Notes: generated by a model not told the origin, from the sequence alone. Numbered from the stretch's first letter, positions 5,361 through 32,884 are shown. The stretch is 64,000 nt of DNA from Microthyrium microscopicum (GCA_010405405.1 MU004232.1:267481-331480); one strand, 5' to 3'. Numbers and translations: made by a program.

Positions 5361-6049
5361 TGTTAAGAGAGCATATAAAAGCCAAAAAAAAGATATTGAT
5401 TAGGACATCAACGAATATCAAATAAGGGAAGGTAATGAATAATCTGCTATGAGCTCGGGAGGATAGGATAGGTACTACCTGTGTATGTTCTGCTGCGGAA
5501 AAGGCGCAGTTGAGGCTTAGCGACGGCGGGCGCAGCGCCAGACAGCCACTACAGTGCTATCGGAGACCTGCTTATCCCCCCCCTAAAATCGTGAAGCGTC
5601 AGTCCACCGTATGATTGGCTTTGACTCAAGCCTTACGCGTGTATCATTGGTGTAAACAACGAGATCGAGAGACTAAGCCTGATGTAGACGAGATGGCTTG
5701 CCTCTAAGCCAACCAGCTGTCGATTATTCTTGTTAACAATTTTGGGGGGGGATAAGCAGGTCCCCGATAGCACTGTATGAACCGGACAGCCTGATGCACT
5801 GGACGGCCGGGTGAGTCTGATAGCCTACTGAACTGAACAACCTGTAGGCGAATGTCCCAGTCGTAGGACCTCATGAGGTGGTAACTTCGCGTCGACAATA
5901 ACTGAGCCACGAGAGAGTCATAGTGGACCTAACAATGGGACATCGAGCCTGAAAATACCGGGAATAGTGGCGGTGCAAGCAGGAGCAGCGTTGAGCTGAT
6001 GTTGAGTTGAAAGTAATATCGCAGAGTCAAAAAACCGAAACCCGCTAAC

Positions 6050-7124: not shown

Positions 7125-7562
7125 TGCTCTGCGGAAGCTGTAGTCTTGTAGCATTGGTAAGCGCAATATACTCATGGCTCTGAGCTAGTTGCTTTCTCAA
7201 ATTGTACAACGCTCATTCTTGTAATGTGAACTATACTCTTGCCTGAATATGACCCTTGAAATCAGCATCTCGTTCTGCTGATACTGTAGGTCTCACAGCG
7301 TTCAGGAGGTCGCTCTCCAGGGACAAAATAAGTGAGCCGTTTGAGGGAGTTTCCATCGATTACAATGGCTGCCGATTATTGAATGCGATGGTAATTAAAG
7401 CAGCCACTCTTAGGAAGTGATATGGTAACCATTGTAATCGATAGGAATAATTATCAAACCCGTTCACTGATTTTGTCCCCGAAGAGGGTGGTTCGGAGGC
7501 GCTTGGAGCCTGGAGGTGAAGTAAACATGGAGAAGCTTGTTGAGGAAGGAGCTCAACATTTG

Positions 7563-7714
7563 TGTTGTGATGAAGAACATGCTAAGGGATTAGATAATCG
7601 TAGGACCTAATTAGGGATAACATAATCCCCTAATTAGCGTATCCTAAAAACTATATTAGGCCCTTAGACTCCTATAGTAATTAACTACGCTTTATTTCTT
7701 ATATTTTTATAATA
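7563..7714 (+). repeat. 5' LTR of the outer element
   Basis: Aligns without gaps to 24759-24910 and differs only by transitions. Confidence 0.95.
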
Positions 7715-10700: not shown

Positions 10701-11524
10701 AAAGAGTAAGAGATAAAGTTAAGAGCGTTCTTTAGCTAATTTAAGAAATATAGAAATAGCTTAATATCCTCTTAATAACTAATAACCTTAATATTAATAA
10801 ACTTACTCTAAAAGATAAAGATATATAGAAACTTTTAAATAATTATTATAAGTCCTTTTATTATACTCTTCTTAAACTTCTATTATATTCTAAGTTTAAT
10901 TATAAAATCTCTATAGAGAATACTTCTTCTTATAATTAAGCTTATTATTAAATATTTAGCCTATAACTAGAAGAGTAGAAAAAGTAGATTTAAGAACTAC
11001 TTACTAAAAGACTTATTAAAGTCTTAGAAAGTTTTTAAAGTTTTTTTATTTTATTTATACTAAAGCTAAGAAGAAAATAAAGAATATATATTAACTACTA
11101 TCTACTTAATATAGTTATATATAAGGATACTTATTCTTTATTATAAATTAATAAGTATCTTAATACTATTAGTAAAGTAAGATTCTTTTTTAAGCTTAAT
11201 TTCCTATTAGGCTATTAGTAAGTCTATATAGTAGAAAAAGATATTAAAAAAATAGCCTTTAATACTAAGTCTAAGAAGTATAAGTTCTTTATTATACCTT
11301 TTAGATTAATAAATATACTATTATTCTTCTAGTATATAATAAATACTCTTTTTTAGCTTTTTTTATTAACTTATATAGTTATTTACTTAAATAATATTAT
11401 TATTTACTTAGATACTATAGAGGAATATTATAAGTATATTACTTAGGTTCTAAAGATCCTTTAAAATAATAAGCTCTACGCTTATTTTAATAAATACGTT
11501 TTTAGGATTAAGAAGATTAAATTC

Positions 11525-11726
11525 TATTAGGAACCTACGAGCGTAAGGGTACAAGCTAATAGTAGATATAATTCAAGAAAACTAATACGAAGAATCTAAG
11601 AGAGAGGGCAAAGAACGATTATAAGTAAGCTACGCTAGATAATCTTTAGGCGCTAAGCCCTTAGCATTACGTAATAGGAGATACTAATAATATTATAATA
11701 AGATTAATAGTGGCAAATCTATAACA
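11525..11726 (-). repeat. 3' LTR of the nested element
   Basis: Direct repeat of 18727-18928, adjacent to the polypurine tract. Confidence 0.93.
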
Positions 11727-14700
11727 ATACTCCCCCTTCTAAGATTAGCGCTCCTAAGCTAAAAACTTACAAAAGGATAAGATTTATAATTAAGTCGTAT
11801 GGTCCTATAATTCCAACACTTTTAGGGTATAAAACATAAAATATAAAAAGCAAAGATAACATCCTTTCTTTATATATAACTACTATACGTACCTATTCCT
11901 TATATTGTCCTCTAGCCTACTAAAGTAACTATTAAGAGGCATTAATAAACCTTAAGATATCTTTAGAATACTCTAGTTTATAAACTAAGTATTAAGGTAT
12001 ACGTAGTAGTATTCTTTACTATTCTAAGGAAAGTCTATCTAAATTATACTCCTCCTCTTTCTTCTTTTAAAGATCTATAAATATAGAATATAGCCTTAGT
12101 TTATTAAGGTTTTAGTTATAGTACTTAGTAATAAGTTCTAGATAGGAGTTAAGATCTAACTATAGTTACTAATTAGGATCGTAGTTCTAATTATCCTATC
12201 TTATAAACTAGACTTTATACTATAAAACCTTCTTCTTACTAAAGCCTTTTATAATACCTATCTTACTATTAATAACGTAATTAACTATCTACTCCTACTC
12301 TATATTATTATCTATATTTATAATTATAGGAAGGTTATCTAGTTCTTAAAGTACAGCAGTATATTTAGGAATAAAGTAGAGTAGCTAAGCATAGAAGATA
12401 AGGTAAATCTTTATCTTTTCTAGTAGTTCTAACTTATAGGTAAGGGTGTTAATCTTCTTAATAATCTTAAAGAGTCCTATAGATTTATTATTAAGGAATT
12501 TTAATAGTTAGAGAGATTTATAATAGTAAGCGTTAAAGCATACCTAATTACCTAATTTAAGGTCTAGTACTAGTTAATGAGTCTTATTAGCCTACTCTTC
12601 TATAAGAGCGGTAGACTACAAGATCTATTTTTAAAGATACTTATAAAGGTCAATACAAGTATAGAGATATTAGTTAGTAAGTTATTATTTAGTTTAGGTT
12701 AGCTTAGTTCCTAAGCAGGCCTTTAGAGGCATTAGTTCTAATCCTAATTAAAGAAGATAACCATTAAGTACGTAGAAGAGACTTATCTTAATAGAGGCGT
12801 AGACAGTATAGTTAGCTTTAAACTTAGCGAATAGTAGTAGTCCTACTTAGTTATTCTATTACTAGTTAATAAAGCATCTAAGGTAAGCTTTTAGTACTAT
12901 AACTAATATTTCTATAATACTATTACCCTATAAGTACTAAGTAGTAGTTAAGTAGATAATAATACTAATACGTTTATAAAGACGTTACTAAAATGCGAAC
13001 GTAAATTATAAACTATAGTTAGAGAAAATAGAGTTAGGCTATCTAGTATATTTCTAGATTTAGTTAAGGAACGTAAGAACTATTATCTATATACTTAAGT
13101 TAGAGAAAGGTATAAATCGTTAGGTATATATTAGCCTATCTATAATAACTATAATATAATAGTAGATAGTTCTAAGGTAAATACAAAGTAGTAAAGCAAC
13201 TATAAAGTTAATAAAGATATTAAACTAGGTATAGTTAGGTAGTAGAAACGACTAAAGAAGACCCTACTTCTTTTATTTAACTAGCTTAGAGAACGCGCAC
13301 TTATATACTTTAATATAGTACTTTATATCTTTAGCTATATAGGGCTAATAGTAGAATTAATAGAGGCGCTAATATATAGAAGTTATACTACTATAACCTA
13401 TTATTTTATAATTATATGTATATTTAATAGCGCAGTGTTAAAGACGTCCTATAAGGACAAGGAGTTATTATCTATACTAAATAGTGCTATTAGTAAGTAC
13501 TTAGTAATCACTAAGTTCAATTAAGTCTTTTTCTAAGGTATTATATAGTAGGCAATATAACTATATAGCTTTAGAGTTATAGATTATTTAAACGAGCTTA
13601 TCTAATTAGCTAGCCTTAATAATATCTTTCTATAATATCTCTAGGTTAGCTAGCACGTTATTTATCCTAGAGTAATTAATTAACTTGCCTAGGATTAAGG
13701 TAAAACCCCCTATAGTTAGTTAATTAATTAGCTCGCCTTCTATAGTTAGTATATTAACTTTATTAGCGACGATTATAATAAGTTTAATTATTATAGGTCG
13801 TTTGCTATTAATAAAGAGAATAGCAATCTTAATAGTATATTAAGTATTATAAGAGTAAGAAATCTCATAGTAGGTATTAAAGTTATAAAAGGAAAGGATT
13901 AGTTATATTTATTAGGTAATCTATAGATTATTATTAGATTTTAGAAGATTCTATAATCTCTAAGTTAGTATATCTACTTTTGTATTAAAGGGACTATTAT
14001 AATATTTAATCTTAAACTAGAATTAAGAGAGAAACTCTACTTATTAAGCTTAATAGCAAGATAGCTTTTTAATTAATATAAAAGTATGCAAGTTAAGATA
14101 GTTAGTAAAAACTTATATAGGATTAAAGGTTAAAAATAATTCAGGTTTTTATTTCTTAAATACCTATATGATTATAAGTAGCTCTTTATTATAGATATTA
14201 TAATTATACTTTATTAGGGTTATCTTTTTAGAAAGAAAAGCTACTAGATAAAGCTTACTATTTATGCCTTTCTAAGAAAGGATAGTTACTACTACCTAGT
14301 CTAAGGCATTAGTTTTAACCTAAGTCTTAGTATTAGAGTTAAAGTAATAAAGAATTAGAGCAGTAGTAAAGGCCTTCTTTAATATGTTAAAAGCTTATTC
14401 TTTAGGTCTAGTCTTACTCTATAGGAAGTATAAGAGAGCGTCCTTCTTAGTTAGTATAGTAAGTAGTATAATAATTTTTAAGTATTCTTTAATAAAATAG
14501 TAATAAAAGTTTATAAAGCTAAGGAATATCTAAACGTCTTTTAGAGAGATAGAGTAATGCTAGTTAAGTACGATATTAACCTTCTTCTTATCTATTTAGA
14601 TTCCGTTAGATATAATAATAATACTAAGATATTTAACTAATTAGGTTATAAACTTAGATTTAGAAATATTAAGATAGAGTCTAGCTTTTTTAAACTTATT

Positions 14701-17700
14701 AAAGATTAGGTAGACGTAGGTAATATACTCTTCTTTAGTCTTACTCTAAATAAGAATGTTATTAAGGTAGACTATAATAAAGTTATTAAGGTATTTATAT
14801 ACTACGTTATTAATATAAGATTAAAAGCTTCTTAATAATTCTATTATACTAAATAGCATCACTAAGATTTTAAAGAGTCTATAGCGTATTAAGAACGCGA
14901 TCTTATGCTTATCTTCTTTACGAATTTAAATATTATTAAAGGTAGCAATAACGTTAAATTATAAAAAGAATTTTACCTTATAAATCTTTATTAAAGTTTC
15001 TATTAAGAATAAAGATATATTTTAGTTAGTTAGTATAATTTTATTAAGTCTATAATAGTTAACGTAGATATAAATACTACTACCTAGTTTACTAATGTAT
15101 AATATAGATATAGCGTAATAAGAGGTACTTAGTTAGATAAAGCTTTTTTTAAGCATATTCTTAATATATTTCTTAACAACTTATGCCTATTAGCAAGATA
15201 TACTATAGGATTTACGTATAGGTACTTTTATATTTAGATTAATAGTAATAGCATAGTTAAAGCCTAGTTAATATAGTAGTAGCTTATTAGCTTAGTAAGA
15301 GTTAAATAAGGAAACGTAGTAATAAAACTCTAGTAGTATTAATTTTAGTAATTCCTCTCGCGTTAGTAAGTTATAATTAAGCTTTTCACGCTATTTAGTA
15401 TAGTCTTTAGTAAAGATTATAATAATGCTAGCAACGTTCTACTAAGGAATAGGGTTAAGGTCTTCTTCCTCTTCTAAGGCGTTAAAGTCTTCTTAGTAAA
15501 AAGCTATAAAATAGTAATCTTTACGCTATATTATAGCTATAAAGACTTATAGTAATACTATATAAATATTAAGGGTTCCTTTTTATTGTTTATCTATAAC
15601 TACTTAATCTTTATAGTTAATAGTTATTAGGTAATAGAAAGCTATATAGTATCTTATATAATACTTAAAGTAGAAGCTTAATATACGTTAGTCTTTCTAG
15701 AGTATAATTTTATGCTTATTTATTTACAAGTCGCTAAGGATTATATTATAGTTAGCAACTTTTATTACAAAGTATAGAATCTATTTAAAGTAGATACTAA
15801 TACGTAATATAATAGCTACTATATAGGTTATTTTTATAATAGCGTAGCTATTAGCTATTTTAGCGTAGTAGAGTTAGGTTATCTCTACTAATAGAATACT
15901 ATAGATTTAGAGGTAATAAGAGTTAATGATACTAAAGGCATTACTACCTATATTAATTAGGACTTTTGTTTTAGTGTACGCATTATTATTAATAAGAATA
16001 TTACTAGTAGTATTCTACTATTAGCCTATTTTTAGAATAGAATATTTTAGTAATTAGTTAATAAGGACATAAGCTACTAATATGCATATAATAGCTATGC
16101 TTATAGGGTTACTTTTAGTTTTAAAGTTACTTAAGTAGTTAATAATAGCCTCTATCTAACGTTTTCATTATTTATTATATGCTTCTATTTTATTTAGCTC
16201 CTCTACGTAGCGTTATAAAAAAGCGTCTAGTTTCTCTAGTCCTAGTAGTAATAATTACTATATATTAATAAGTAATTATTTAGTAGGGTTAGGTTTTATA
16301 CTTAAGTATTATCTTATTATAGACAAATACTAGCAAGTTTAGTAGTAATGTTAGAATTAGAGAGAGCTAATTTGCCTTTATACTTTAAATTCTTATCTTT
16401 ATAGTTATAACCTTATTCGCTATATTAGGTATAGTAGTAGTCTTATATAAGACGTTAGTATAGAGTAGTCTTACGACGTAGTATATAGTTAATTTAGTTA
16501 TTAGTTTAGTTACTATTATTATTATTCTAATTGCTAAACGGCTTATTATTATTATTAGTTTTACGTTTAAGGTTTTAGTTAATAACTTATAATTTGTTAA
16601 TATACTTAGCAATAGTAGTAGCTTTTAAAAGGAATAGATATTATATAATTTCTTTAACGATTATATACTTAAGGTAAGTAACCTTATCTACTTTTATAAG
16701 GCTAGCGTTAGTAATTTTGCTATTAAACTTAGTAATATATAGAGTAAGCTTCTTAGTCTTCTTTATTTAATTTAAGAAATTTTATAATTAGGTAATAGTA
16801 TCTTTATAAGTATTATATTTCTAAGTATATTAATCTAGGTCTTCTTAGAACTCTATTATATTAGAGTATAGGTTTAGTAATTCGTATTAAGTATAATCTT
16901 TAACGAACCTAAGGATAATATTAAGAGTCTTACTATGTACCTAAATAGTAGCGTCTAGTTTTATAGAGAATAAGGCTTACTTATTATAAAGATAGTCTTT
17001 AATATAAAGCTTCTACGTAGAATATTATTTAAGGTTATAACCTAAGTATTTACCTAGATTGCTCTATTTACGTTTCTTACTTTTACTACTAACTAAGAAT
17101 CTAGATACTACTAGGGTTAGGCTATTAGTTTAAATATAAGGGGCTTATTAATAAGGGGAAAGTATTACTCGTTTGTCGTTAGAGTTAAGTTAGTAGATAT
17201 TCTCTTTAGACTTATATATAAACTAACTAAGCTAGTTCTTAAGATCTTTATTCTAAAGGCAAAGGGCTATAATCTTATTACGCTTCTTAGTATAGGAAGT
17301 ACGTAATTATTTAATATTATTAAGTGCTTTATTAAGTTCCTATCAATTTATATTATAGGCGTTCTCTAGATAGAGGACATATTCATTATTCTTATAGTTA
17401 GCTTTAATTATGCAATTAAGTTATTAGTAAAGTTAATCTACCTTCTTACGTTACTTATTAGCTATAACTATAGTATTATTAAGTTTATTAGTTATGTCTT
17501 TAACCTTTTATTCATAGTATTAACTTATATTAGTTATATTATTTAGCTAGGCATAGGTTTCTTAAGTATAGAGGTTAGCTACTTATACTAATTTAATATA
17601 GCTACGTAGCTACTTAAACTAGAGTTTTAATAATATTATAATACTATGAAAGAAACCTTTATAAGTCTTAATAACTTCTAGGTATAAATTACCCTAAGTA

Positions 17701-18726
17701 TAATATATAAGTATAGAGTCTAGAGAAACGCTTTTAATAATACTATCTAAAGGGATAGTTTCCTAGGCTTAGAAGATAACTTCTTTATAAAGAAGTTATA
17801 TAGAGGATACTTAAGTCTTCTTATTAAGAGTAATTAACTAGTAGGTAATAAAATAAAAGGGTATCTAGTAGTTTAATAGTAACTCCTTAATCTAGGCTTA
17901 GTCTACTAGTTAAAGGGTAGTAATTAGAGGATCTATAGAGGATATCTTTCCTTTACCTTTAGTCTAGAATTATAACTAGCTATAAATATAGCTACTCTTA
18001 GCAATTTCTAAGATATTAGATAGTAAAGGTACTTTAGTAATAAAATTATAATAAGAGTATAAGAAATTATAGCGTAAAAAGTAACTATAAGGTAGTTCTA
18101 TAGTAGTATTCTCTTTATTACTATTAATCTAGGTATAAGGTTACATAATTATAAACTAAGTAGTATTCTAAGTCTTTAATTATTATTACTTACAAAGATA
18201 AGATATAGAGTAAGTCCTATAGGTCTTAACAATATCTCCTATAGTAAGATAAAGGTTTAATATTAAGTAAGTATAAGTAGTAAGTATGAGCGCTAAGAAG
18301 TCTTAAAACAAAGTATAAATAAGTTATAAAGATATAATAAGTAATTTAGAGAAGGAAGTAGGTAGTCTAATTTATTATAGTTTATCTTTAAGGCTTATTA
18401 TAGTATAGCAAAATAAGTAAAGTCTTGCTATAGGTATAGTAGTAAAGAAAAGTAGTAGTAGTAAAGAATTATTAACCTATAAGTCTAATAGGGTAGAAGT
18501 TCTAAGTTAACTAGGATTCTTTAATTACTCTAATTAGACGCTAGGAGTCTAAGCTTCTAGCAAGGTTAAAGATTAAGAATTTATATATTTACCACGCTAG
18601 TAGGTTAAATCTACTAGGATCTAAAAATAGGATTCTATATTTATATAAGTAGACGTATCAAATCTTTAGATTTTAATATACTAAAAATTAGGATTATTTT
18701 TTAAATAGTATAAGGTATTAGTTTTA

Positions 18727-18928
18727 TATTAGGGACCTACGAGCATAAGGGTACAAGCTAACGATAGATATAATTTAAGAAAACTAATATAAAGAATCTA
18801 AGAGAGAGGGTAGGGAACAGTTATAGGTAAGCTACGCTAGATAATCCTTAAGCACTAAGCCCTTAGCATTACGTAACAGAGGATACCAATAATGTTACAA
18901 TAGGATCAATAGTAGCAGATCCATAACA
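18727..18928 (-). repeat. 5' LTR of the nested element
   Basis: Direct repeat of 11525-11726, ending ...ataaca and followed by the AATTC duplication. Confidence 0.93.
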
Positions 18929-21900
18929 AATTCTATAGCTATAAAGTAAGAGGTTAGTAAATCTAATTCTTACGTAAAAAGACTACTTTAATTAAGTTTT
19001 AGCTTATACCTAAGAACGTATATAAAGTATATTAATTCTTTAGTCTTACTTTATACTATTAGTAGTATATTAAAAACTTTATTAAGATTACTATTCTTAT
19101 CTTTAACCTTTTAAAGGAAGCTAATCTAGATATTAGGAAAAAGAAGTATTACCTTATTACTTAAACTTATTAATATACTATAGCCTTTAATAGAATTAAG
19201 ACTCTATTAACTTTATTACTTATCTTAGTAGTATATAATTTATAAAAGCTTATAAAGCTTTAAATAGATACTTTAGATTATATAATTAGTTATAAGCTAG
19301 TATAAGAAAATAACTAAAGTAAATAGTACCTAGTTACTTTTAATAGCTATAAGCTAAATAAAGCTAAACTTAATTATTTAGTATATAAGAAAGAGCTTTT
19401 TATAGTTAAGGATATAATTAGAAAATACTAATACTACTTCTTAAAGAAGACTACTAAAGTAATTATAAATTATAATAGCTTATAATATATAAATATAATT
19501 AAGAATAATACTTAACGTATTACTTAATAGATTAAAGAGTTCTAAGAATTTAATCTTATCTTTATATATTATAAGAGTTCTTAAGTAGTAGTTTCTAATA
19601 CTCTTAGTTATTATTTAAACTTTTAAGAAAAATAGATTAATATTATTTAGGAAATAGAGCCTAAAGATAATAATAATAACTTATTTTCTAAGGCGTAAGC
19701 TACCTTATTAGAACCTTTATAAGAGTAAAAAGAATAAGAAGCTCTCTATATATAGAGCTTATAAAAAGTATTAAAAAAGAAAAATTATACTATTTTTACT
19801 AGTATATAAAAGAAACTTTAAAAAAGTATTCTTAATTATTTTTAGATTAACTCTAATAAAGATATTAAAAAAAAATATAAGTATTTATTCTTAGAGAAAA
19901 ATTTTACTAAAGCTAAAATACTTACTAATTTACTCTATATTTACTTATTCTACTACTAAGATTTTATTAAGAAAGTATATAATTAATATAAGTATCTATT
20001 ATATATAAGCCTTACTAGTATTCTTAAACTAAAAGATTAATAGCTAGAAATAAAGAATAACTTTTAAGAATTTATCTAATTCTATTCTATATATTAAGTT
20101 TAATAGATAGATTAAAGTAGGCCTAAGTATAAGTCCTACTATTAAGTATAAAACCTATAGCTATTTAAGGCTTAGGGAATTAACTTAATTAATAAACTTT
20201 TATAAAGTCTCTTTAGGAATTAGTATATTATCTATATAATTAACTATACTATAAGATAGCTTATTATAAAAGTAGTACTAAATATTACTACTTTTATAGT
20301 TATAGAATTTATTTATAGAAAAATTATTTTAGAATATAGTCTTTCTTAATTATTAACTTTAAATAATAAACTTTAGTTTATTTTAGATATAATTCTATTC
20401 TTATTATAATAAATAAAGACTAAGTACTACTTAATAGCCTTATATAACCCTTAGTTTAATAAGAAGATTAAGAGATTTAATAACCTACTAAGTATATTTC
20501 TAACTAAGTTCTTAGAAGAAAAACTTATAACTAGCTAGGATCTATACTTAAATTAGGTAATTTATACTACTAAGATATAAGCTTATATTATATTAGAAAT
20601 ATCTTTTTTTTTCCTTATTTATAAAAGAGATCTTAAGAACTTTAAAATAGACTAAGTAAAGAAAAATAAATAGGCTAAATTAACTAGTACTATACTTCTT
20701 ATCTATATAATTATAGAAGATTACTTAAAGAAGGTTAAAACTATTAGGTAAGTTTATTATAATGCCTTATTAAAATAAGCTATAGCTTTAAACCTTATTA
20801 ATAGTAATATAATTTTAAAAAAGGACTTTATTATTAAGTTTCTTATAGATTCTTATATACTTCTTAAAAACTTAAATAAAACTAAGTTTTAGGTAGTATA
20901 GTTTAGCTTTTATAAAGTCTTAAAGGTCTACTCCTTAAGAATATACGCTCTTAAGATACCTAATAAAAAAGTATTTAAAAACCTTATTTATAGGAATTAC
21001 TTTATATAAGTATATATATAAGAAGAAAATAAATACTATTACTAAAACTAGTTATATTCTAAGTATAAGTAATTAAGTAAGAATAACCTTAAAGATATCT
21101 TAAATAAAGAGTATAGAAGTAAAATAAATATATTTACTATAACTAAGAAAGACTAGCTTAATAAATTAAGGAATCTTTTAATAGAGTTAATTAATATTAA
21201 GAGGTCTAATACTAGGAAATATTACTTAAGTTTATTTACTATTCTTTTTAACTTTATAAAAAAAGTTTAGGAAGCTAAAGTAAATATTTATAGATAAGAA
21301 AAGAAATACTTTATAGTAATTATTTATAACCTAAGTAATAACTTAAAGACTTTTATAGCGTTAGAATATATTCTTCTTAACCTAATTTTAGCTTTAGTAT
21401 AAAGTAATCTAGAATAGATAAAGTAAATTATATAGAAAGTAAAATATTTTATAGTATTATAAAATTTAGTAAGAAAAAAGAATAATAATATTCTTATCTC
21501 CTTAAATTAAAGCTTAATAAAAAAGAAAATTTTTCTAACTATAGTAAATTAAGAATTAATCTTTATATTACTAAAATAATAAGAGTAGAGAGATAAATTA
21601 TTAAGGCTAAGGAGCTATAATAAGATTACTATTTTAATTACTTATACGCCTATACTAGAAGTAATAAATCTATATAAATAAGTATCTAATCTTAGAAAAA
21701 ACTATTAAGGTATTAACTCTTTATTACTAGATATTATAAAAGTAGAGGTTTTTTCTATAGATTATCCTAAACCTAGTCTACTATAAAATATAGATATAAC
21801 TAAAGGATTCTTATAAAATACTAATATATTTAGGCTAACTATAATATTTAGTAGTTTTATATACCTTAGTACTAGCTTATAATATTTAGAATTAGAATAA

Positions 21901-24758
21901 AGATAGTAGAAAGCTACTCCTAAATAAAAGATTATTCTATATATAGATATAGGTAAAGTGCCTATAAGAAAAAAAAGAAAAATTAATTTTTTATTATCTT
22001 TTTTATAATCTTTCTTAATTATATTTATTTAAGAAAACTATTTATAAGAAATTACTTTTATTTATTATTAATTTAAGTAAACTATTATAAGTAATAATAA
22101 CTAAAATTAAACCTTTAAATCTTCTTAATAATTCTTAAGACTATTACTAAGGTTATTTAAATATAATAAGCTATTTCTAAATCTTTTTAGTAATCCTTAG
22201 AACTATTACTAAAAGCCTTTTTATAAAATATTTAATAGTAAGAAATAGGAAACCTAAATAACTTAAATTTCTAAGCTAATTTACTACTTTTTAGTTTTAA
22301 AGTAACGTAAGCTTAATACTACTTTTCTTTATTCCTTAAAAGATAACTAACTCTAAGAGTTTAGTTCTATTTTTTTCTCTATATAAGTAAGCTAATATAC
22401 TTCTTTTCTACTAGAATTAAACATAATTAATAAAGCTTTTAAATAACCTAAAAATAGCATAGATAATAAGCTATTAGTAAAGCTATAAATAGGAGTAATA
22501 GGTAGTCTAGTAACTATTTATATTAATTATATAGTACTTATACTTACTTTTTTTATTATAAATAAGTAATATTATTTACTATTTAAGGTATAATTTATAT
22601 AAGCCTTATTAAATATAAAATTACTTTTTATATTCTAGAAGACTATATAATTATACTAAGTAATAACTTCTTTATCTAAAAGCTTAAGTATATAGTAGTA
22701 TTTATATTTATTATAATACTAGTTAGGTTAGTAACTCTAAATATAAATTATAGCTACTTATAGCTTATTACTACTAGATAATAGATTAGTTATTACTATA
22801 GTAGCTAGCTTAGTCTAAGTAAGACTATGCTTAATATAGTACTTAAGTAATACTAAAATCTTTTAAGGAATTTTAACTCCTTAATTCTAAAAATCTTATA
22901 AAACTTAGATAAGCTTATTCTAAGTCTTTTTCTTATATATCTATAACTAGTAGTTTAAATAAATTAATTAACTACTTACTATAGTATAAGCTATATTATT
23001 AAGTAAATACTTATAAGTCTACTTATTAAGCTTTTTTAAGAGAGTTAAATAATAACCTAAACTAGGCTTTACTTTAATTTAAGGCTTAAGTAAAGTCTTA
23101 TACGTACTATTTTACTTTTTTATAAGCTAATATAATAGCGTCTTTATCTTCTTCTTACTTAAAGACTTAATATACTCTAGTTTATTCTTAGGAATATTTA
23201 AGAAGCTAGTTTTATTAACTATATACTTATATACTTATAAAATACTATAAGTTTATTTTAGCTTAGGTATTATATAATAGTAGTAGCCTTAACTATATTC
23301 TTAATTAATAATTTAGTATAAGGTTATTTTAGAGTATACTAAGCTATTTTAAATATACTAAAGTATATTTTCTACTACTTAAACTTAGGAATATATTATA
23401 TCTTACTTTATATATACTTATATAAAATTAAGTAGTATAATATTTAAGAAGTTATAGTTTAAACTAAAGGTATTAATAATATAAGTACTTAATATTATAA
23501 ATAGCTTAATTTTATTTTAATCTAAGAGACTTATTTCTTAGAGCTATTAAAGTATTATTTATATTAAAGTATTCTTCTTAATAAAACCTACCTTTTATTT
23601 AGATATCTCTTAAGTAGCTTACTTATAAGCTAACTTTTACTAGTAAAAGAACTTACTTTCTAAAACTAGAAGATATTATCTAAACGTAGGTAATTATTTA
23701 TAAGATTATCTTATCTTAGAATTAATATTATAATAGCTTATAGAAGCTTACTAATAAGCTTTTTTAAGAAAAGGATTTAGATAGTTAATACTCTATTAAT
23801 AACTAGATCTAGCTAAAGAAAGTAGAAAGTAGTTATTATTATTCCTTATACTTAGAAATCTTAATATACTACTTTATTAGCTATAAGCTTTAGCTAAAGA
23901 AAATAGATATATAGGCGTATTTATAAATAATTATAGACGTTCTTTAAAATAAGGTTAAGTAACTAGACTTAAAAACTAAGTAATAGAACTTAAAGCTTAC
24001 TATAAAGATTTAGCTTAATTATATTAAGCCTAAGAAACTTAAGAGTAAGTACTATACTTTTTAGATAGCTTTAAAGATAACGTAATTAGCTTAGTATAAG
24101 GAGCTATTCTAAAGAGCTCTTATAATTAAGAGCTTAAGAAGAATTAAGGATTAAAGAAGAAAAATATATAAAGCTATTTATACTTAATAATATTAAAAAT
24201 ATAAGAAAAAATCTACTTTTACTAGCTTAAAGTATTATAGAAGTATAATAAAAAAGAAGAAAAGAAGATAATAAATTATAAAGCTTTATAAATATAGAAT
24301 TAGGCCTTTATCTTATATTTACTTAGACTAATAATTACTACTTAGTTCTTTATTACTACTTATATATTACTTCTTATAAACTTTATTCTTTAAGGCCTTA
24401 AAGCATAGATTATATATATTCCTTACTAGATTAAGTAGCTTTAATATACTTATATAAATTCCTTATAATTTCTTAATTTACTACTACTAATAGCCTCTAT
24501 ATAAATAAATCTTCTTAAAAGGATTAGGAACTATAAATACTTAAGTACTATTTATAATAGTTTAACTTAGATCTTAAAGAAAATCTTAGGAAAATAATTC
24601 CTTAAAGATTACCTTATAGTATAACTAAGGTAATAACCCTAAACCTTAAGTAAAAGTTCTTTATTAATTATTATAATATTCTTTTTATTTTACTTATTTA
24701 TTAAAGCTATAATTATAGAATTTATAATCTTAAGAGAGTTTACGCTAGTAAAAGAGAA

Positions 24759-24910
24759 TATTATAATAAAGAATATACTAAGGAATTAGATAATTATAAG
24801 ACCTAATTAGGGATAATATAATCTCCTAATTAGCATATTCTAAAAACTATATTAGGCCCTTAGACTCTCGTAGTAATTAACCACGCTTTATTTCTCATAT
24901 TCTTGCAACA
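24759..24910 (+). repeat. 3' LTR of the outer element
   Basis: Ends ...ttgcaaca and is followed by ATTTG. Confidence 0.95.
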
Positions 24911-25071
24911 ATTTGAATACTGCATCCATCACGTGCCTGCCCTCCCAGCACCCTCAGCCAATATTCAATCTTCAACCTCCTCTGCTACAGCTCATTACTC
25001 CACTCTCTCTCCATCAACAACCCCTATTCCGCCCTCACTCAAAACACATTCATCACATTCTTCCGTCAATC

Positions 25072-26898
25072 ATGTCTGAATATATAGGGTAAGGCCACCA
25101 AAATATCCCAATTAGCTAGCTAACAAACCTCTCTAGCTCCAAGATATCTCTGATATCCAAGAGCGACATCCGCTATGTCGGCACGCTGGTTGAAATAAAC
25201 TCCGAGAACTCGACAGTCGCGCTCGAACAGGTCATGTCATATGGCACAGAAGACCGTCGCACCGGCGACGAATCCTTCCCTCCTTCAACCTCCCTTTTCG
25301 AATACATCCTATTTCGTGGTAGCGATGTCAAAGACCTGAGAATAGAAGAACCAGCAAAAGAGCCTTCTCCGCCACAACCACCGTCAATGCCAAACGACCC
25401 TGCTATTCTTGGAGTAAGTCTTTCCTCTACCACCTCGACAAGCACTGTGATGAAGTATTCCGGATGTAAAATTACACTTTGGCCGAGAGCGCAAGCCCAA
25501 AAGGGTTCATGTGGATATTTCCGTTGCCTTCCTTCTGATCTGCTATCAACCTCATCTACATTAGCATATATGTGTTCTTCAATAGCTGACAAGCTCTAGT
25601 CTGCCAGACCCAACAAGCCTACACCTACTCAACAGCCTAGCCAACCTGCTCCTCCTCCAGGTCCTGGCCCGCAAGGCTTCCCTCCCCATCACCCACAATT
25701 CAATCAATTCGGTCCCTATGGAGGCATGCCACCACAAGGACCACCACCTGGAGGATTCGGTCGTGGCTTCCCTCCTGGGGGCCCACCTGGTCCATTTCCA
25801 GGAGGCTATCCAGGCATGCACTTTGGACCAGGTGGTCCCAATGGCCCACCCCCAGGATGGTACCCCCCCGGTCAAGGATTTCCGCCTGGTCAGTTTCCTC
25901 AGGGCCCTGGTATGCCTCCTGGGCCCCCAGGCCACCAAAAACAGCATGGTCCGCAACAAAATCGAGAACAAATTCCAGTGGAAAAAGATTCCGATACCAA
26001 GGCTGCCCCCGAAGTGTCCGCAAAAAAAGCAACCGAAAGCACACCAGCTGCTAAACCAGCCGCAGATGGACCACCTCCACCTGTCGAATCGAAGCCCGAT
26101 GTTGCAACTGCTATTGCTCCTCCTGTGCAGACTAGCAAACCGCCCACTGGTCCCAAAGGAAAAGTTGCTTTACCCCGTCCCGGACAAACAAGACAACCTG
26201 CAGAGCAAGCTACCACCCGAGTGCAAGCCCAAACAACTGTAATTGCGACTTCGACACAGCAAACTACGGCTCAACAAGCAGCCGCCGCTGTGGCTGCAGC
26301 CATGGCCAAAATACCAATGGCGGCGAAAGCTCAGTCAGCTCAACAACCACAGAATGGTGTTGACAATTTGACCCGAAAACTCAACGAGATGCGTACGCAA
26401 GATTCTACCCGCCCAGCAAGATCAGGTTTCCGAGGTGTCGGCCGTGGACGTGGTCGTGGAGCTCATCAAGGGCGAGTGGAAATCCCAGCCACTGACTTTG
26501 ACTTTGAACAATCAAACAAGAAATTCAATAAGGAAGATCTCGCGAAAGAAGCTCTGACAACACCAGAGCCTCATGGCAATGGTGCTGCCGAAGACGAGCA
26601 GAGTGAAGATGTGGTGATACCACCGCCTCAACAAGGTGGGGCATACAACAAAACTTCTAGCTTCTTTGACAATATTTCATCCGAGCTCAAAGATCGAGAG
26701 GAGAAGAAGACCTTCGGTGGTCCCGAGTTCCGTACTGAAGAGCGAAAGAAGAACATTGAAACATTTGGCCAAGGAAGCATAGATGGATATCGCGGCGGAT
26801 ACCGGGGACGCGGTCGAGGCCGAGGCCGTGGACGAGGAGGATTCGTACCTCGCGGCAGAGGCGGAATGCGTGGACGTGGCGCTCCTGTGGAGTTGTAG
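25072..26898 (+). CDS. SCD6: Scd6/Lsm14/Sum2 P-body translational repressor; exons 25072-25088, 25137-25413, 25600-26898
   Basis: The spliced N-terminus [37 protein letters not shown] is the Lsm14 domain. Also present: DFDF box (TDFDFEQSN), FFD box ([10 protein letters not shown]), TFG box ([11 protein letters not shown]) and RGG repeats. All splice sites are canonical and in frame. Confidence 0.96.
25441..25544 (+). ncRNA. snR52: Intronic box C/D snoRNA, snR52-like (predicted guide for the 18S rRNA position equivalent to yeast Am420)
   Basis: Lies in SCD6 intron 2. Box C GTGATGA at 25447-25453, box D CTGA at 25535-25538, terminal stem AGCA/TGCT. The guide GTTGCCTTCCTT is complementary to conserved 18S AAGGAAGGCAGC, and the D+5 rule points to the A after AAGG. 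The 3' end agrees with my recollection of yeast snR52. Confidence 0.85.
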
Positions 26899-27270
26899 AC
26901 CAACGACCAACCATGTCTACGAGGCTATGGCAAATATAGCATATTCTGTTACTCGAGGGCGATGGCAGCCAACGCACTCGATGGGAGCTGGCTACTTATT
27001 CCTTCGAGCGATGACGAACCATATTCACGATGTTCGCCAGAGGATTCTTATAGCGTTCTGGACGAGGACGAACATTTTCTTCTATCAGCACTATGTAACA
27101 TAGACGAGAAGTCTGCCAAAGAACGGCTTATTACTATCGAATATAATCCCGAACGATTTGATCAACGAAGCGAGCCTTCCGTGAGCGACACCCCTGGCCC
27201 AAGCAAAGCCACGAATCGGATTGTGGTAAGATAATCCATCCTTTGCATTTCGTGACACGATGCCATAACT

Positions 27271-27337
27271 CTGTTCATCTTCCCATCGCTGTTCATCTTC
27301 CCATCACTGTTCATCTTCCCCACCGCTGTTCATCTTC
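27271..27337 (+). repeat. 18-bp tandem repeat (ctgttcatcttcccatcg), about 3.7 copies
   Basis: Units start at 27271, 27289, 27307 and 27326. Confidence 0.9.
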
Positions 27338-28430
27338 TATATCATGCTCTAAAGAAACCTTTGCCAAATCCCGGCCATGACTTCCGACTCATGGGCTCAG
27401 CACTACCTTTTGATCTCCCAAAGCATTTCACACTTACACCCAACACGCTACACAGCCCTGATCAGAAGCATATTTCTCTGCTTTTACGATGTACTTACAC
27501 CCACTAGGCAGATCCACTTCTACCAGGTCTTGAAAATCGTCTTGTGCAGGTCTGGTCATACTCAGGATCGGGTCGAGGTCGAGGTCGAGGTACTCCATAT
27601 AGAGGTGTTGCGGGATGGCCTCACCCTGAAGAAGAGTCAGCAATACGTGACTTATGGCGTAACCCCTCCCCTCCTCCGCGAACTCATCGACCTTCAGCGA
27701 CTCGTTACACTGCAGGGCCTGACGGGATACGAACGGCGGGTTTGACTGTGCCACCCGGGGGGCTTATACCCGATTATGTGCAAGACCCTGCAGCGCAAGC
27801 ACCACGATCCTTTGCACAGAGCCATTCTGGACAGCCACAAGACCAACATGGAGCACACTATCAAGGACAGGCACCATATTTCCAGCATTTAATGTATCAG
27901 CAGCACCACCAGCCATCACAATTTTATCAGTACTCGCCATTCGCAAGCCAATTTCAGATAAATCCGAGTATACCAAGAGACTGGGGCCAGCCACAGACTC
28001 CATATAGCTATCCTATAGCACCACCCTTCGCATTGAATCCGGGTGCACCTTTGTATAATCCAACTTCCGATCTTCACCGGATGCAGTCGCACCAGCAAGA
28101 GAACAGGCAGCCCCCAGCGTCACAGCAAACCGCTCATCGAAGGAGACCAGTTATACAAACTGACTTGGGTCTAGCTCCAAGCTCAGACTCGAGTCCTAAT
28201 ACACCACAGTTCTTCCAACCTCGATCGCAACGACGCGATATCCAGGTAAAGCCTGACTACGCTGCTGGTCTCAGTGCAGCACTGCAAGTCGCTCATGGGT
28301 TGCGCAATGGTGGAAATCGTCTTCCACCTGTGCCTGTGCCTGTGCCCGCTGTACACGACATACCCGGATTGCTCCAGCCTACATCAGAGAGCTATTTGGC
28401 GAGCAGGTAAGATTCTCCCGTGCCAATAAT

Positions 28431-28750
28431 CACATTTCTTGACGATATTCATTGGTATATCAAAAACACCATATTTCCCATCGCATTCGATGGCTGCCAT
28501 AGAATGCGTTCCTAATCGAGTGCTGTGGCTTCCACCAAATGCGATGGGAGTTTTACGGTTTCACGTTGAAAGACCAAATAGTCTTTCCAGCCACATTCTT
28601 TGACGATATTTGTTCCGACCAAAAGTGACACATCTCCCATCGCATTCGATGGCCCCCATAGAATGCGTTGCTGATCGAGCGCTTTGGCTGCCACCGGATG
28701 CGATGGGCAGTCGACTCCCCCGCAGCGAAAAGACCAAATGGTCTTTTTAT
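28431..28750 (+). repeat. Intronic tandem duplication of about 160 bp, each unit with a 72-nt hairpin and a small AAAGAC..GTCTTT hairpin
   Basis: cacatt..ttgacgatatt..cccatcgcattcgatggc..catagaatgcgtt..atgcgatggg..aaagaccaaat(a/g)gtcttt is seen twice with a period of about 159-161. Confidence 0.9.
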
Positions 28751-29215
28751 CTTATACTAACGAGTTCTAGGTTATCTGCGATGCTGGAACCAGCTCAACA
28801 TGAGCGACCCCCTCCTTTGTTTACAAATGAGGTTGCATTTCACCATGAGGATCGCTCACTGACTCGGCAAGTCTCGCAAACTGAAAGGGCACATCAGAGA
28901 GTTGAATCTTTCAGACCACAAAACTCTAGACCTGTCAGTTTATTTCCAGTTCCTGAAATGACTACAACACAAGCAGACACCAGAGATGAAGATTTGAAGG
29001 AGGAAGCAGAAGCAAAGTCTGCCGCGGAAGAAACACAACAATCCTCACGAGTAGAGGAGCGGGAGAATGGCGAATCGAATCGGGACGAAGCCCCAGCGGT
29101 TATACGGGAAAGATCAGGCGCCGTGGATGAGCTGGGTATTGACTCTTTCCCGCCTCGCGTCGTCAAAAAGTCTGAGCAAGAACCTAAAGTACAGCCCAGT
29201 CAGCACTCTGAACGA

Positions 29216-29416
29216 GAGCAGCCATCCAAGGAGCAGCCATCTCAGGAGCAGCCAGCCCAGGAGCAGCCATCCCAGGAGTAGCCATCCCAGGAGCAGTCAT
29301 CCCAAGAGCAGTCATCCCAAGAGCAGCCATCCCAGGAGCAGTCATCCCAAGAGCAGCCATCCCAGGAGCAGCCATCCCAGGAGCAGCCATCTCAGGAGCA
29401 GCCACTCCAGGAGCAG
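29216..29416 (+). repeat. 15-bp coding minisatellite (GAGCAGCCATCCCAG, encoding EQPSQ), about 13 copies
   Basis: Directly visible. One unit has CAG changed to TAG. Confidence 0.95.
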
Positions 29417-30507
29417 ACCGGAGCTTCTCAGACAAAGACCGCACCGCCCCAGTCAAAACCCACACCACCGAAGGTCAAGAAGAACCCTCTCCCCGAACAC
29501 TCAACACCCTACGCAGCTCCAAGGCGTCCCCAAGTCAAAATCCAGCCTCCCTCAAGAAAAGCATCGCCTCCAACTCCACGGCCGAAATTCGATGAAAGCA
29601 AATTGATGCCCAAGCCGGAAACGGCAAAGGACAGGAAAGCTCGCGAACGCGCAGAGAAGAAGGCTAGACAGAAGGCTCCGGCATTTGATTCCGAGCAGAG
29701 ACTATTTCCCCTGAAAGATCCAGCAGATCTGATGGCGCCCAGCAATGAGGATGGTGGAAAGGATGTTTCGACAGATGGACAGGATGAGCCGAACGAGGAG
29801 GCTGAAGAGAAGAAGGACGATGGTGAAGAAGAAGGATGATGGGAAAGAAGAAGGGTGATGGACATTTTCCGTGATGGACATTCTTTCATTAATTTGGTCA
29901 CTTTTTATGCTATTGCTTGTTGATATTGCTCTGATTTTGTCTTTTGTTTCATTTTTTTAGACAGAAATCAATCATTGCTTCTCAACTTTATTGGCATTTT
30001 GAGACCGTGAGTAGTTTACAAAATAAACGGTGTTCTCCCATCGACTCTGATGGCTCTCACCAACGCATTTCATTAAGAGGTGCTTTACTTGCCACTGCAT
30101 TCGATGGGAAATCCAAATGTGAACGCCCTTTATGATAAATAAAGCACTCGATATTAAAGCGTAGCAGATGGGAGACACCGTATTCGATGAGAGACACCGT
30201 ATTCGATGGGAGCGCGCCATGTATTTGTCAAATGGTTGATACTGATACCTCTCATGAACACTCAGCCCATTCCGAAGCTCAAAAACATATACCACTACAA
30301 CAAGACGGTTAAGTCACTCAAGACATACACACAATTGGTAGCATCACGCTCTTATTTGCCATCAAGTGCTATTACATTTCTTTTCCCGTTGATGCACATG
30401 TAACCCCGAACAATTTACTAATCCTTTGCAACCGACGCCCTCCTGAACCCACGACTATTAAGACCGCCAATCGACTTTTTGGAATGAAATGATACCGTAG
30501 AAGAGGT

Positions 30508-32884
30508 TTACTCGAGAGCAAGAACCTATAGATGTGATTAGCAAAGACATATCAAATGTTTGGTGTGAAGACTTACAATAGCAGTGCGGGTAGGAATATA
30601 AACCTGCACGAAATTCTTCCTCTCATTCCACGGCATATCTGTCGTAAAGAACCTCGACGCACTATCAATATTCTTGAACCCACCAAACTGCTCCGCATCC
30701 GTGTTGACCACAATCTTGTACGTGCCCGCGCGATCGACACCAACGCGATAGTCCGTATAACTTTCCGTGGGATGGAAATTGAAGATCCACAATAGGCCCG
30801 CGCGTTCGAAAACGATGACTTTGTCGGCATCATGTTTGAGGGAGACGTATGCTTGGTCGGCGGCAAGCCAGCCATAGCGTGCTTCAGTATTTTGCATACA
30901 GCTGTCGAACTCGTTGAGGAACTTGTAGCGTAGGAGGGGATCATCGACGAGGTTGAATTGCCGGCGTGCGTAGTGGAAGCTGTTGTTGTTGCCTTCGCGG
31001 GGGAAGTCTAGCCATTCGGGGTGGCCGAATTCATTGCCTTCAAAGTTTAGGTAGCCTTCGCCGCCGAGGCCGTGGGTTAGGAGGCGGATCATCTTGTGGA
31101 GGGCGAGACCGCGGCCGATGACTTCGGTCATTGGGGACATGACACTCATGTTTGTGTAGAGCTCTGCATCGCAAAGCCACATCATCAGACTCTTGTCGCC
31201 AACTAGTGCTTGGTCGTGGGATTCGGCGTATGCGATTGTCTTTTCGCCGTGACGGCGGTTGGTGAGAGTGTAGCAGAGGTGGCCCATGTCCCAGTCAATG
31301 TCGGCTTTTTCTTTGAGCCATTTGATGTATAGATCAGGGATGGCCATGGCGAGGCGGTAGTCGAAGCCCATACCACCGAGGGAGAGGGGAAGACAGAGGG
31401 CGGGCATGCCGGAGACGTCTTCGGCGATGGTTATTACGTCGGGGTAGATGTTGTGAAGCATTTCGTTGGCAAGCATTAGGTAGACTACGCCTTCTTCGTC
31501 GACTTGGTCGCCAAAGTATTCGTGGTAGCCTCCAGAGAAGCCGCTGTGATGGTTAGATGATGCTGACAATATGGAAAGGAAGTACTTACGTCCCGATGCC
31601 GTGATGAAGATATAGCATGCTTGTGACACCGTCGAATCTGAACCCGTCGAATTGATACTCGTCCATCCAGAATCGCAGGTTGCTAAGAAGAAAGCGGAGG
31701 ACTTCATGGTGGCCATAGTTGAACAGCCGGCTATCCCACAACTCATGACGGCCTTTTACGCCTTCATGGAAGTATTGATGATCACTACCATCGAATTCAT
31801 TCAACCCATCAAGCACATTCTTCGAGGCATGAGAGTGGACAACGTCTAGAAGAACCGTGATTCCCATTCCATGAGCAGTATCAACAAGCTCTTTCAAGTC
31901 GTCAGGGAAGCCATAGCGACTACTTGCAGCAAAGAAGTTGTTGATTTGATAACCAAAGCTGGCGTAGTAGGCATGTTCCATGATGGCCATTAATTGGATG
32001 GTATTGTAACCAAGATCGCGGATCCGTGGGAGGATGTTATGGGTGAACTCCTTGTATGTCGCGACTTTCCCTTCGGGTGATGAGATACCAACATGAGCTT
32101 CGTAGATTCGAACGCTCTTGGGATGTGGTGGCTTTTGGTTCCTGAAGACGTACTTTTCGGATCCTGGTGGATTCCAGAATCTAGCATCGTATACAGGCGA
32201 TACATTCAAGTCTTGTGTAACTCTTTTGATCCAGGCCGGTAATCTTTCAAGACGCTCGCCGTGCATTGGGGCTTCTAGTGAAATCTGGCGAATTGTTAGA
32301 CAAGTCGGGCTAAGCTTAAGAGATTCCAACCTTGATTTTGGAATCATGTGCGATCGCAGGTTGGCCGTTGGCAGCAGGGATGAGAATCTCGAATACACCA
32401 AATTGATTCTTCTTCATTTCATGGGAATGACGATCCCAGCCATCTAATCATGTTAGTACGAGTTGTTTTCCAAGGAAGGTGGCATACTAAAGTCGCCAAT
32501 TAAGAAGGCCTTGGTGGCATTGGGAGCCCATTCGCGATAGAGGATATCATTGTTTGGCTGTACGAGGAAGCCATAACACTCGTATCCCTAGTGCGATTAG
32601 CTATAGTTGTAAAAGCAAATGACTAGTACGTACCCTACTGAACTTCTCGAGCCCGCCCTCAGTTTCATCAAGGGTCTTGATCCATTTTTGGGCTTTGCTA
32701 AATCGACGTTTGAGGGAGTCCTTGAAGGGTCCAAGCCATGGATCTAGGTCCACGACACCTGAAAAGATGCGCGTTAGTCAATTGGTGAAGTAGATGAAGC
32801 TTGGGACTTACCAGTGCCGTCTGGAACCTTTTGACCTTGGACAACTGACTGATTGACAGAGTTGCTGGCGTTGGACAGCGCCAT
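30508..32884 (-). CDS. GLC3: 1,4-alpha-glucan (glycogen) branching enzyme, GH13, multi-exon
   Basis: [93 protein letters not shown] at 32884; the last exon VLALE* ends at 30508. Six GT-AG introns were located. Confidence 0.97.

Follow-up and report, generated by a model that had tools for sequence, protein, structure and literature searches.

In Zymoseptoria tritici, adjacent genes on the same strand whose untranslated regions (UTRs) overlap are merged by RNA-seq assembly, and such merged assemblies were judged to be artefacts of the overlapping UTRs (10.1101/2023.04.26.537486). True polycistronic molecules have also been described in this fungus, with 224 supported cases, but they are rare relative to single-gene transcripts (10.1101/2023.04.26.537486). 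Similarly, polycistronic molecules exist in Agaricomycetes (PMC4503453). A second type of described system is the fungal editing of adenosine to inosine (A-to-I), which favours U at position -1 and hairpin loops, often affects UAG and is stage-specific (PMC11156358). This editing is documented in Sordariomycetes and in one Pezizomycete; in Aspergillus nidulans and Botrytis cinerea, none was found (PMC11156358). Where editing removes the stop codon of FgDbf2, the resulting protein tail measures 24 aa (PMC13123824).

Here, we analyze a locus of Microthyrium microscopicum for which both types of system come into question. It lies in a 64,000-nt stretch of genomic DNA (GCA_010405405.1, MU004232.1:267481-331480; hereafter the window, with positions counted from its first letter) and is formed by SCD6, a gene of the Scd6/LSM14/Sum2 family, and by a gene of three exons that follows it on the same strand, called the downstream gene in this text. 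An original prediction made for this DNA had noted that the SCD6 frame stays open past its TAG stop, through ATG 26962, to a splice donor at 27225/27226; all of its coordinates hold (Table 1).

With a probability of roughly 0.65, the locus consists of ordinary tight tandem genes with a frame match by chance, where a repeat of the second gene contains a simple nonsense change or a wrong base. According to this reading, two separate genes would stand in tight tandem on the + strand; SCD6 would end at its canonical TAG, and the downstream gene would be separately transcribed, spliced, and translated from ATG 26962. A short-read assembly would merge the overlapping SCD6 and downstream transcripts into one contig, and the TAG inside the downstream gene would be a plain recent C>T nonsense change or an assembly base error. 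The locus would then illustrate cleanly how closely packed tandem genes of fungi can have one frame by coincidence and be joined in RNA assemblies from short reads. It resembles the tandem genes of Z. tritici and Agaricomycetes in that the genes are merged in assembly, that coverage drops between them and that their open reading frames (ORFs) are separated by a stop (10.1101/2023.04.26.537486; PMC4503453). However, the two genes are here in the same frame, with an open spacer of 21 codons and 63 nt from stop to ATG, and the arrangement is known from contigs and not from long reads.

Table 1. Positions of the features discussed in the text, with the observation on which each rests.
Feature	Position	Strand	Basis or remark
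SCD6 exon 1 (ATG + 14 nt)	25072..25088	+	GT..AG joint 25087>25136 (cut +1) in RNA contig
SCD6 intron 1	25089-25136	+	GT..AG joint in run X1 contigs
SCD6 exon 2, LSm14 domain	25137..25413	+	Pfam PF12701
SCD6 intron 2, 186 nt, snoRNA host	25414..25599	+	GT..AG joint 25413>25600
SCD6 exon 3 (FDF domain, RGG boxes), stop TAG 26896-98	25600..26898	+	Pfam FDF and C-terminal alignment
Spacer, 63 nt; SCD6 3' UTR, presumably also the downstream gene's 5' UTR or promoter	26899..26961	+	Open in SCD6 frame
Downstream gene exon 1, 88 codons	26962..27225	+	Codon bias; donor seen in joint 27224>27507
Downstream gene intron 1, 282 nt	27226..27507	+	GT..AG joint
18-nt tandem repeat in downstream intron 1	27271-27337		3.7 copies, 90% matches
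Downstream gene exon 2 (RG repeat, Q/P/Y-rich)	27508..28406	+	Open 300 codons; RNA contig 27507-28404, depth 221.5
Downstream gene intron 2, 364 nt, two hairpin repeat copies	28407..28770	+	GT..AG joint
Downstream gene exon 3, ends TGA 29837-39	28771..29839	+	Open except TAG 29279-81; RNA contigs 28769-29266, 29360-29794
15-nt tandem array, 13.4 copies, five-residue PSQEQ-type units	29216..29416	+	TRF score 311
In-frame TAG, single C>T of the unit's CAG codon	29279..29281	+	Codon-phased repeat listing
Hairpin repeat like a miniature inverted-repeat transposable element (MITE), ~75-95 nt	28462-28556, 28621-28715, 30022-30116		Arms match 17-nt core 28477-28493
Partial copies of hairpin repeat	near 1601-1617, 30167-30226, 26962-26988
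Alpha-amylase-family gene (Alpha-amylase and Alpha-amylase_C domains)	30538-32413	-	Converges on downstream gene

The SCD6 Gene and Its End

As judged from its domains and from alignment, the first gene is an ordinary Scd6/LSM14/Sum2 orthologue that terminates at the canonical TAG. The spliced product of 530 aa has an N-terminus like those of its homologs. Pfam places an LSm14 domain on 25138-25413 (PF12701; E 2.3e-29; 101.7 bits vs. a cut-off of 30) and an FDF domain in exon 3 (PF09532; E 1.3e-17; 65 bits vs. a cut-off of 26.1). Scd6 homologs with E<=1e-10 numbered 1198 among 8000 scored candidates. The closest database Scd6 is 55% identical by BLASTP and 67% identical over the aligned columns of the Scd6 tree considered below, and those of named species are about 37-50% identical.

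To locate the end of the protein, the window Scd6, read through its TAG as X, was aligned with 12 homologs. In 11 of the 12, the protein ends 5-13 residues past the last RG-box column, and the window Scd6 ends after 7; the RG columns are invariant in all 13 rows of the alignment. In the twelfth homolog, P0039, some 55 further residues follow, which have no conserved column in common with 26899-27225, and none of the 12 aligned homologs has a tail that resembles this stretch. The possibility that TAG is a reassigned sense codon was ruled out, as the SCD6 TAG stands exactly at the end point of the homologs.

The features of the Scd6/LSM14/Sum2 family (LSm14 and FDF domains, C-terminal RGG boxes, a product of this size and the usual place of the stop) are thus all present. 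The sole notable difference, in a lineage that is thinly sampled, is a small nucleolar RNA (snoRNA) in intron 2. This C/D-box snoRNA, snoZ13_snr52 (RF00335), matches at full model length at 25438-25546 (+), with 77.4 bits vs. a gathering threshold of 47 (E 1.1e-14), and its presence explains the length of the intron. It was the sole Rfam match over 24500-30600, with nothing in the downstream gene or its introns.

The Downstream Gene

The RNA data used here are de Bruijn contigs of one public run, X1, which is labelled RNA by guess only; because its contigs lack four GT..AG introns, X1 was taken as containing cDNA. In these contigs, the downstream gene is expressed and spliced. Both junctions that had been proposed for it are found as GT..AG joints: the first, 27224>27507, leaves out 282 nt and has a depth of 199; the second, 28404>28769, leaves out 364 nt and has a depth of 221.5. 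The acceptor of the first is 27507/27508, and an alternative exon-2 start at 27550, also put forward in the original prediction, is unused. Unspliced contigs have a depth of only 11 over intron 1 and 14.1 over intron 2, which indicates that, in the RNA, exon 2 is almost always joined to the end of exon 1. The two exon 3 contigs have depths of 394 and 484.

The GTG/gtaaga donor at 27225/27226 joins to 27508 in phase 0, and 28406/28407 joins to 28771 across a split codon. Together, 26962-27225, 27508-28406, and 28771-29839 make 2232 nt, or 744 codons, in which the only stops are codon 558 (TAG 29279-81) and the terminal TGA. The scripted join of the exons agrees with the earlier claim that only two UAG codons interrupt the long frame that begins in SCD6. 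It also gives a potential product of 530 + 1 + 21 + 743 = 1295 aa, where about 1,280-1,300 aa had been expected.

Codon bias was scored against nine other ORFs of the window and expressed as z relative to shuffles. It reaches 3.3 in exon 1, 2.6 in the whole of exon 2, and, in exon 3, 4.4 ahead of the TAG and 3.8 behind it once the repeat is excluded, compared with 6.2 in SCD6 exon 3; in both downstream introns, it is negative in all frames. The sole in-frame ATG of exon 1 is its first codon, 26962. The next in-frame ATG of the spliced RNA stands at 27892; it is preceded by 216 open codons, and eight out-of-frame ATGs separate it from 26962, which favours ATG 26962 as the start. This codon is likely the translation start of the downstream gene.

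The sole database protein for the downstream gene is a public model of 425 aa, P0001, which maps to 27892-29606. It starts at 27892, 216 codons too late. In addition, it departs from the frame after 29263 and continues in +1 from 29337, which corresponds to a 73-nt GC..AG intron at 29263-29335. This intron across the TAG was ruled out, as the frame that it enters scores -0.37 bits per codon, compared with +0.19 in the straight frame; RNA joints at 29263-29335 are absent from the contig data, in which, however, that stretch is uncovered. The intron was evidently placed to avoid TAG 29279-81. The RNA junctions and the codon bias lead instead to the longer model of three exons, and the locus therefore corrects a public gene model with a late start and an invented frameshifting GC..AG intron.

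A Shared Reading Frame

After the SCD6 TAG, the frame is open over 26899-27234, that is, for 111 codons from stop to stop. The distance of 63 nt between the SCD6 stop and ATG 26962, on which the original prediction had drawn, is borne out by the coordinates. Since exon 1 is coding in its own right, a coincidence needs only a matching frame (1 in 3) and 21 stop-free codons in the spacer. The spacer is open in two of its three frames, and it was open in 0.32 of 20,000 composition-preserving shuffles. The chance of a frame match is then ~0.1 (0.32 x 1/3), a value that gives substance to the caveat, already made in the original prediction, that the match could be fortuitous. The codon-bias z of the spacer is 0.4, on 21 codons, which are too few to weigh. 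The frame common to SCD6 and the downstream gene is most likely a coincidence. The downstream gene was also considered as a partial duplicate of SCD6, which was ruled out (BLASTP best E 3.7); the two are not paralogues.

Several observations weigh against the reading of two ordinary tandem genes. One RNA contig runs unbroken over ~25027-27226, through spliced SCD6, the spacer and exon 1, to a fork where a spliced and an unspliced form diverge; one long transcript would look the same. Neither a transcription start nor a poly(A) site was seen in the contig data. The record of X1 guesses it to be RNA, of unspecified growth stage. The spacer contains two out-of-frame ATGs, 26913 (8 codons) and 26927 (58 codons, overlapping the main ATG), which a transcription start upstream of 26913 would place before the main ATG. 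The single Met of exon 1 lies in repeat-derived sequence. In the first 128 codons of exon 2, the codon-bias z is 1.45 and frame +1 scores higher. After the internal TAG, 185 codons are open with a coding-like bias, which suggests that translation of the tail continued until recently or goes on today. Finally, the adenosines of both TAGs lie in predicted hairpin loops, although the hairpins fold no better than shuffles, as detailed below.

The Internal TAG

The TAG at 29279-81 belongs to the tandem array of exon 3. The unit that contains it is one C>T away from the consensus unit, and CAG is found in all 12 of the other units that have a codon at that position (12/12). By comparison among the units, the TAG is most likely a recent CpA>TpA nonsense substitution of a glutamine codon, or else an assembly base error. 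In this strain, it would truncate the downstream protein at 557 aa. The C>T change at 29279 is in a CpA context, which is the context preferred by repeat-induced point mutation (RIP); one change is not attributable to RIP.

A related explanation, compatible with the reading of two tandem genes, is that the TAG is a base or consensus error, or is private to the isolate, and that the full 743-aa protein is normal. In agreement with it, the TAG differs from the repeat consensus by a single base, and the coding-like frame of 185 codons remains open behind it. Tandem arrays, moreover, pose difficulties for assembly, and even the RNA contigs are interrupted here, at 29266 and 29360. The stretch 29267-29359 is without RNA contig cover: bins 29123-29323 and 29324-29524 are fully explained by contigs that end at 29266 and start at 29360. 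However, P0001 was built to dodge the TAG, so the base is present in the deposited assembly, and assembly errors in arrays usually concern copy number and not substitutions. Taken together, these points make an error or a private variant possible but rather doubtful.

Transcription of the Two Genes

The SCD6 contig has a mean depth of 836, but only 199 + 11 = 210 leaves its 3' end at 27226. Coverage must therefore fall about four-fold inside the contig, which suggests that the majority of the SCD6 RNA terminates past the stop but before 27226. With ATG 26962 so close to the SCD6 stop, the start site of the downstream transcript would fall within the spacer or the last part of SCD6, and the 3' UTR of one gene would thus overlap the 5' end of the other. 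The transcription units overlap, or some read-through RNA exists; the contigs cannot tell which. A share of the downstream-gene RNA may come from the SCD6 promoter.

In its strong form, the latter idea would make the locus dicistronic: the downstream gene would have no promoter, and its exons would be found mainly on long SCD6 transcripts in which the proximal poly(A) site is bypassed and the two downstream introns are then removed. The single contig that covers SCD6 on to 27226 and the spacer of only 63 nt are both consistent with this, as are the downstream depths of 199-484, a sizeable fraction of the 836 of the SCD6 contig. Fungal polycistronic molecules are also known (PMC4503453; 10.1101/2023.04.26.537486), but those of Z. 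tritici were always rare relative to single-gene transcripts (10.1101/2023.04.26.537486). Assembled contigs do not show single molecules, and no piece among the X1 contigs listed spans both genes. The four-fold drop in depth before 27226 also argues against long transcripts as the main source. Moreover, the downstream gene keeps a coding-like codon bias, although a second ORF behind an ORF of 530 codons is hardly translated by scanning ribosomes. A downstream gene that depends mainly on dicistronic RNA is thus improbable.

Possible Recoding of the Stop Codons

The original prediction had considered, among other readings, a readthrough- or editing-gated long Scd6 isoform. Readthrough of UAG 26896-98 and 29279-81, or their A-to-I editing in the sexual stage, would yield a fusion of up to 1295 aa from a spliced read-through RNA. 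In favour of it, the frame stays open and in phase across the two downstream introns, and UAG, the triplet of both stops, is the one most often edited in fungi (PMC11156358); 403 genes with stop-loss editing sites are reported in F. graminearum (PMC13123824). The stop-loss and premature-stop editing of Sordariomycetes (FgDBF2, PMC13123824; PUK1, PMC4817773; PMC11156358) likewise involves UAG, predicted loops and disordered downstream sequence.

However, the stop-loss tails known from these systems are short and are not spliced into a neighbouring gene (PMC13123824; PMC4817773; PMC11156358). The resemblance also weakens at the level of the stops. The SCD6 end is kept in 11/12 homologs, none with a similar tail, and no coding bias is seen in the spacer, within the limits of its 21 codons (z 0.4). 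No joint in the X1 contigs leads from a donor inside SCD6 to the downstream gene. At 26897, the letter in the RNA contig is A, with 0 others, so that the A>G expected there did not appear; contigs drop rare variants. The internal TAG derives from CAG, and since the ancestral codon was CAG, editing to UGG would put W in a Q-rich repeat and would not be restorative, unlike the correction of a TGG-derived stop. The frame match itself has a probability of ~0.1 by chance.

The sequence context of the two stops is mixed. The internal UAG is followed by C, which is a leaky context, but the SCD6 UAG is followed by A, a context of efficient termination. The U at -1 of the edited A is automatic for any TAG. 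The hairpins fold no better than shuffles: for the regions of the two TAGs, the fold z is -1.32 and -1.27 in 61-nt windows, where 20/200 shuffles fold as well in each case, and -0.3 and -1.6 in 31-nt windows.

The position of the organism must also be considered. Editing is reported only in Sordariomycetes and Pyronema (PMC11156358). A quick maximum-likelihood tree of Scd6 (32 rows; the careful search is unfinished) groups the window protein with 5 metagenome proteins (support of 99 in the Shimodaira-Hasegawa-like approximate likelihood ratio test, SH-aLRT), on the side of Dothideomycetes and Eurotiomycetes. This side is separated (SH-aLRT 98) from a clade of Leotiomycetes and Sordariomycetes, so that by this tree the organism is not a Sordariomycete; a single fast-evolving gene is a weak marker. 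No paper in the library searched mentions Scd6 together with stop codon readthrough, and the supplementary files of PMC13123824 contain no 'Scd6', 'LSM14', 'Sum2' or 'FDF', which is a weak sign as they may list locus tags only.

Overall, a translational fusion is very unlikely. That a non-Sordariomycete fungus uses developmentally gated UAG recoding, by A-to-I editing or programmed readthrough, on a spliced SCD6 read-through transcript to fuse Scd6 to a disordered, RG- and Q/P/Y-rich tail of 743 residues, with the second UAG as a further gate, is even harder to credit. If true, stop-codon recoding would reach a fungal lineage in which it is new and would take on a new scale, with a whole neighbour gene appended to a conserved RNA-granule protein.

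Origin and Character of the Downstream Protein

From the searches made, the downstream gene is lineage-restricted, with three exons and 743 codons. The large protein libraries were searched with exon 2 and with the spacer plus exon 1, exon 3 being left out. A HMMER search with exon 2 among 1.84 billion cluster representatives gave one match, P0001, which is 100% identical and evidently the genome's own model. Word-based searches among longer proteins gave no match for exon 2, nor for the spacer plus exon 1. Similarly, no Pfam family was found in five pieces of the downstream gene, and the PDB sequence search returned 0 matches for exon 1 and the exon-3 tail. In the searches of exon 2, then, the gene has no homolog beyond its own model, in line with its earlier description as an orphan. 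With no database Scd6 closer than 55% identity, sampling of the lineage is thin, and 'orphan' may mean that close relatives are unsequenced.

A metagenome scan seeded with the Scd6 alignment yielded 8 loci, with Scd6 proteins 34-54% identical to that of the window; the contig of the closest relative, P0002, was not among them. Nothing like the spacer or the downstream gene was found in these 8 loci (tblastn with the five pieces of the downstream gene; best E 0.48), which are too distant to date the gene. Their neighbouring genes are considered in the next section.

The downstream protein is probably intrinsically disordered, as suggested by composition and structure models. It contains 13% P, 10% S, 10% Q, and 9% E, and 72% of its residues are disorder-promoting. 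The Atlas model of P0001 has a predicted local distance difference test score (pLDDT) of 0.41 and a predicted TM-score (pTM) of 0.13, with a best TM-score of 0.22; its best feature match, 0.75 to 'SUZ domain', was rated at chance level. AlphaFold2 on exon 1 as a single sequence gave a pLDDT of 42 and no fold, and is uninformative. Two [W/Y]xx[L/I] cores with acidic, Ser and Thr flanks occur at 26989-27000 and 27049-27060 (residues 10-13 and 30-33), and they may resemble Atg8-interacting motifs (AIM, also called LC3-interacting regions, LIR). They are followed, in exon 2, by the RG repeat and the Q/P/Y-rich tract.

Like other orphan genes for disordered proteins, the downstream gene has no detectable homolog, is rich in disorder and in tandem repeats, has a low pLDDT and carries repeats in its introns and at its start codon. 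In contrast to genes born de novo, it is long and mature, with 743 codons, three exons, and a codon usage like that of other genes. It may be of young origin, as one reading in the original prediction had it. The first 27 nt of its exon 1 resemble one arm of a dispersed hairpin repeat: the start codon and the first eight codons match the reverse complement of one arm at 84% over 25 nt. The present start may, on this resemblance, be repeat-derived. An expressed, lineage-restricted disordered protein with its start codon in repeat-derived sequence would provide a modest lead on the remodelling of gene ends.

Repeats and Neighbouring Genes

The 17-nt core of the hairpin repeat has 9 matches in the window vs. 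0.05 expected. Its copies fold strongly, with z values of -5.5 and -4.7 for the two copies in intron 2 and of -3.4 for a further copy. One contig of low depth (13.4) links 26988 to 28476; it has TG..TT ends and one side of 27 nt. Because both ends lie in hairpin copies, it probably represents a chimera of the assembly, or else a copy located elsewhere, and not a splice. Loose ends of other RNA contigs at 28636, 28678, 30046, and 30121 suggest further transcribed hairpin copies elsewhere. Hairpin repeats also occupy the gap of ~700 nt between the downstream gene and the alpha-amylase-family gene that converges on it.

This alpha-amylase-family neighbour was found in none of the 8 metagenome loci (0/8). 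Only a SWIRM-domain neighbour recurs, in locus L006, where the SWIRM-domain gene lies at 5377-5613, ~3.9 kb downstream of Scd6. In the window, a SWIRM-like ORF (1713-2723) is located upstream of SCD6, beyond an AT-rich block. This block of 17 kb, at about 7500-24800, has 18-27% G+C and ends ~270 nt upstream of the SCD6 ATG; it looks like RIP-degraded repeats.

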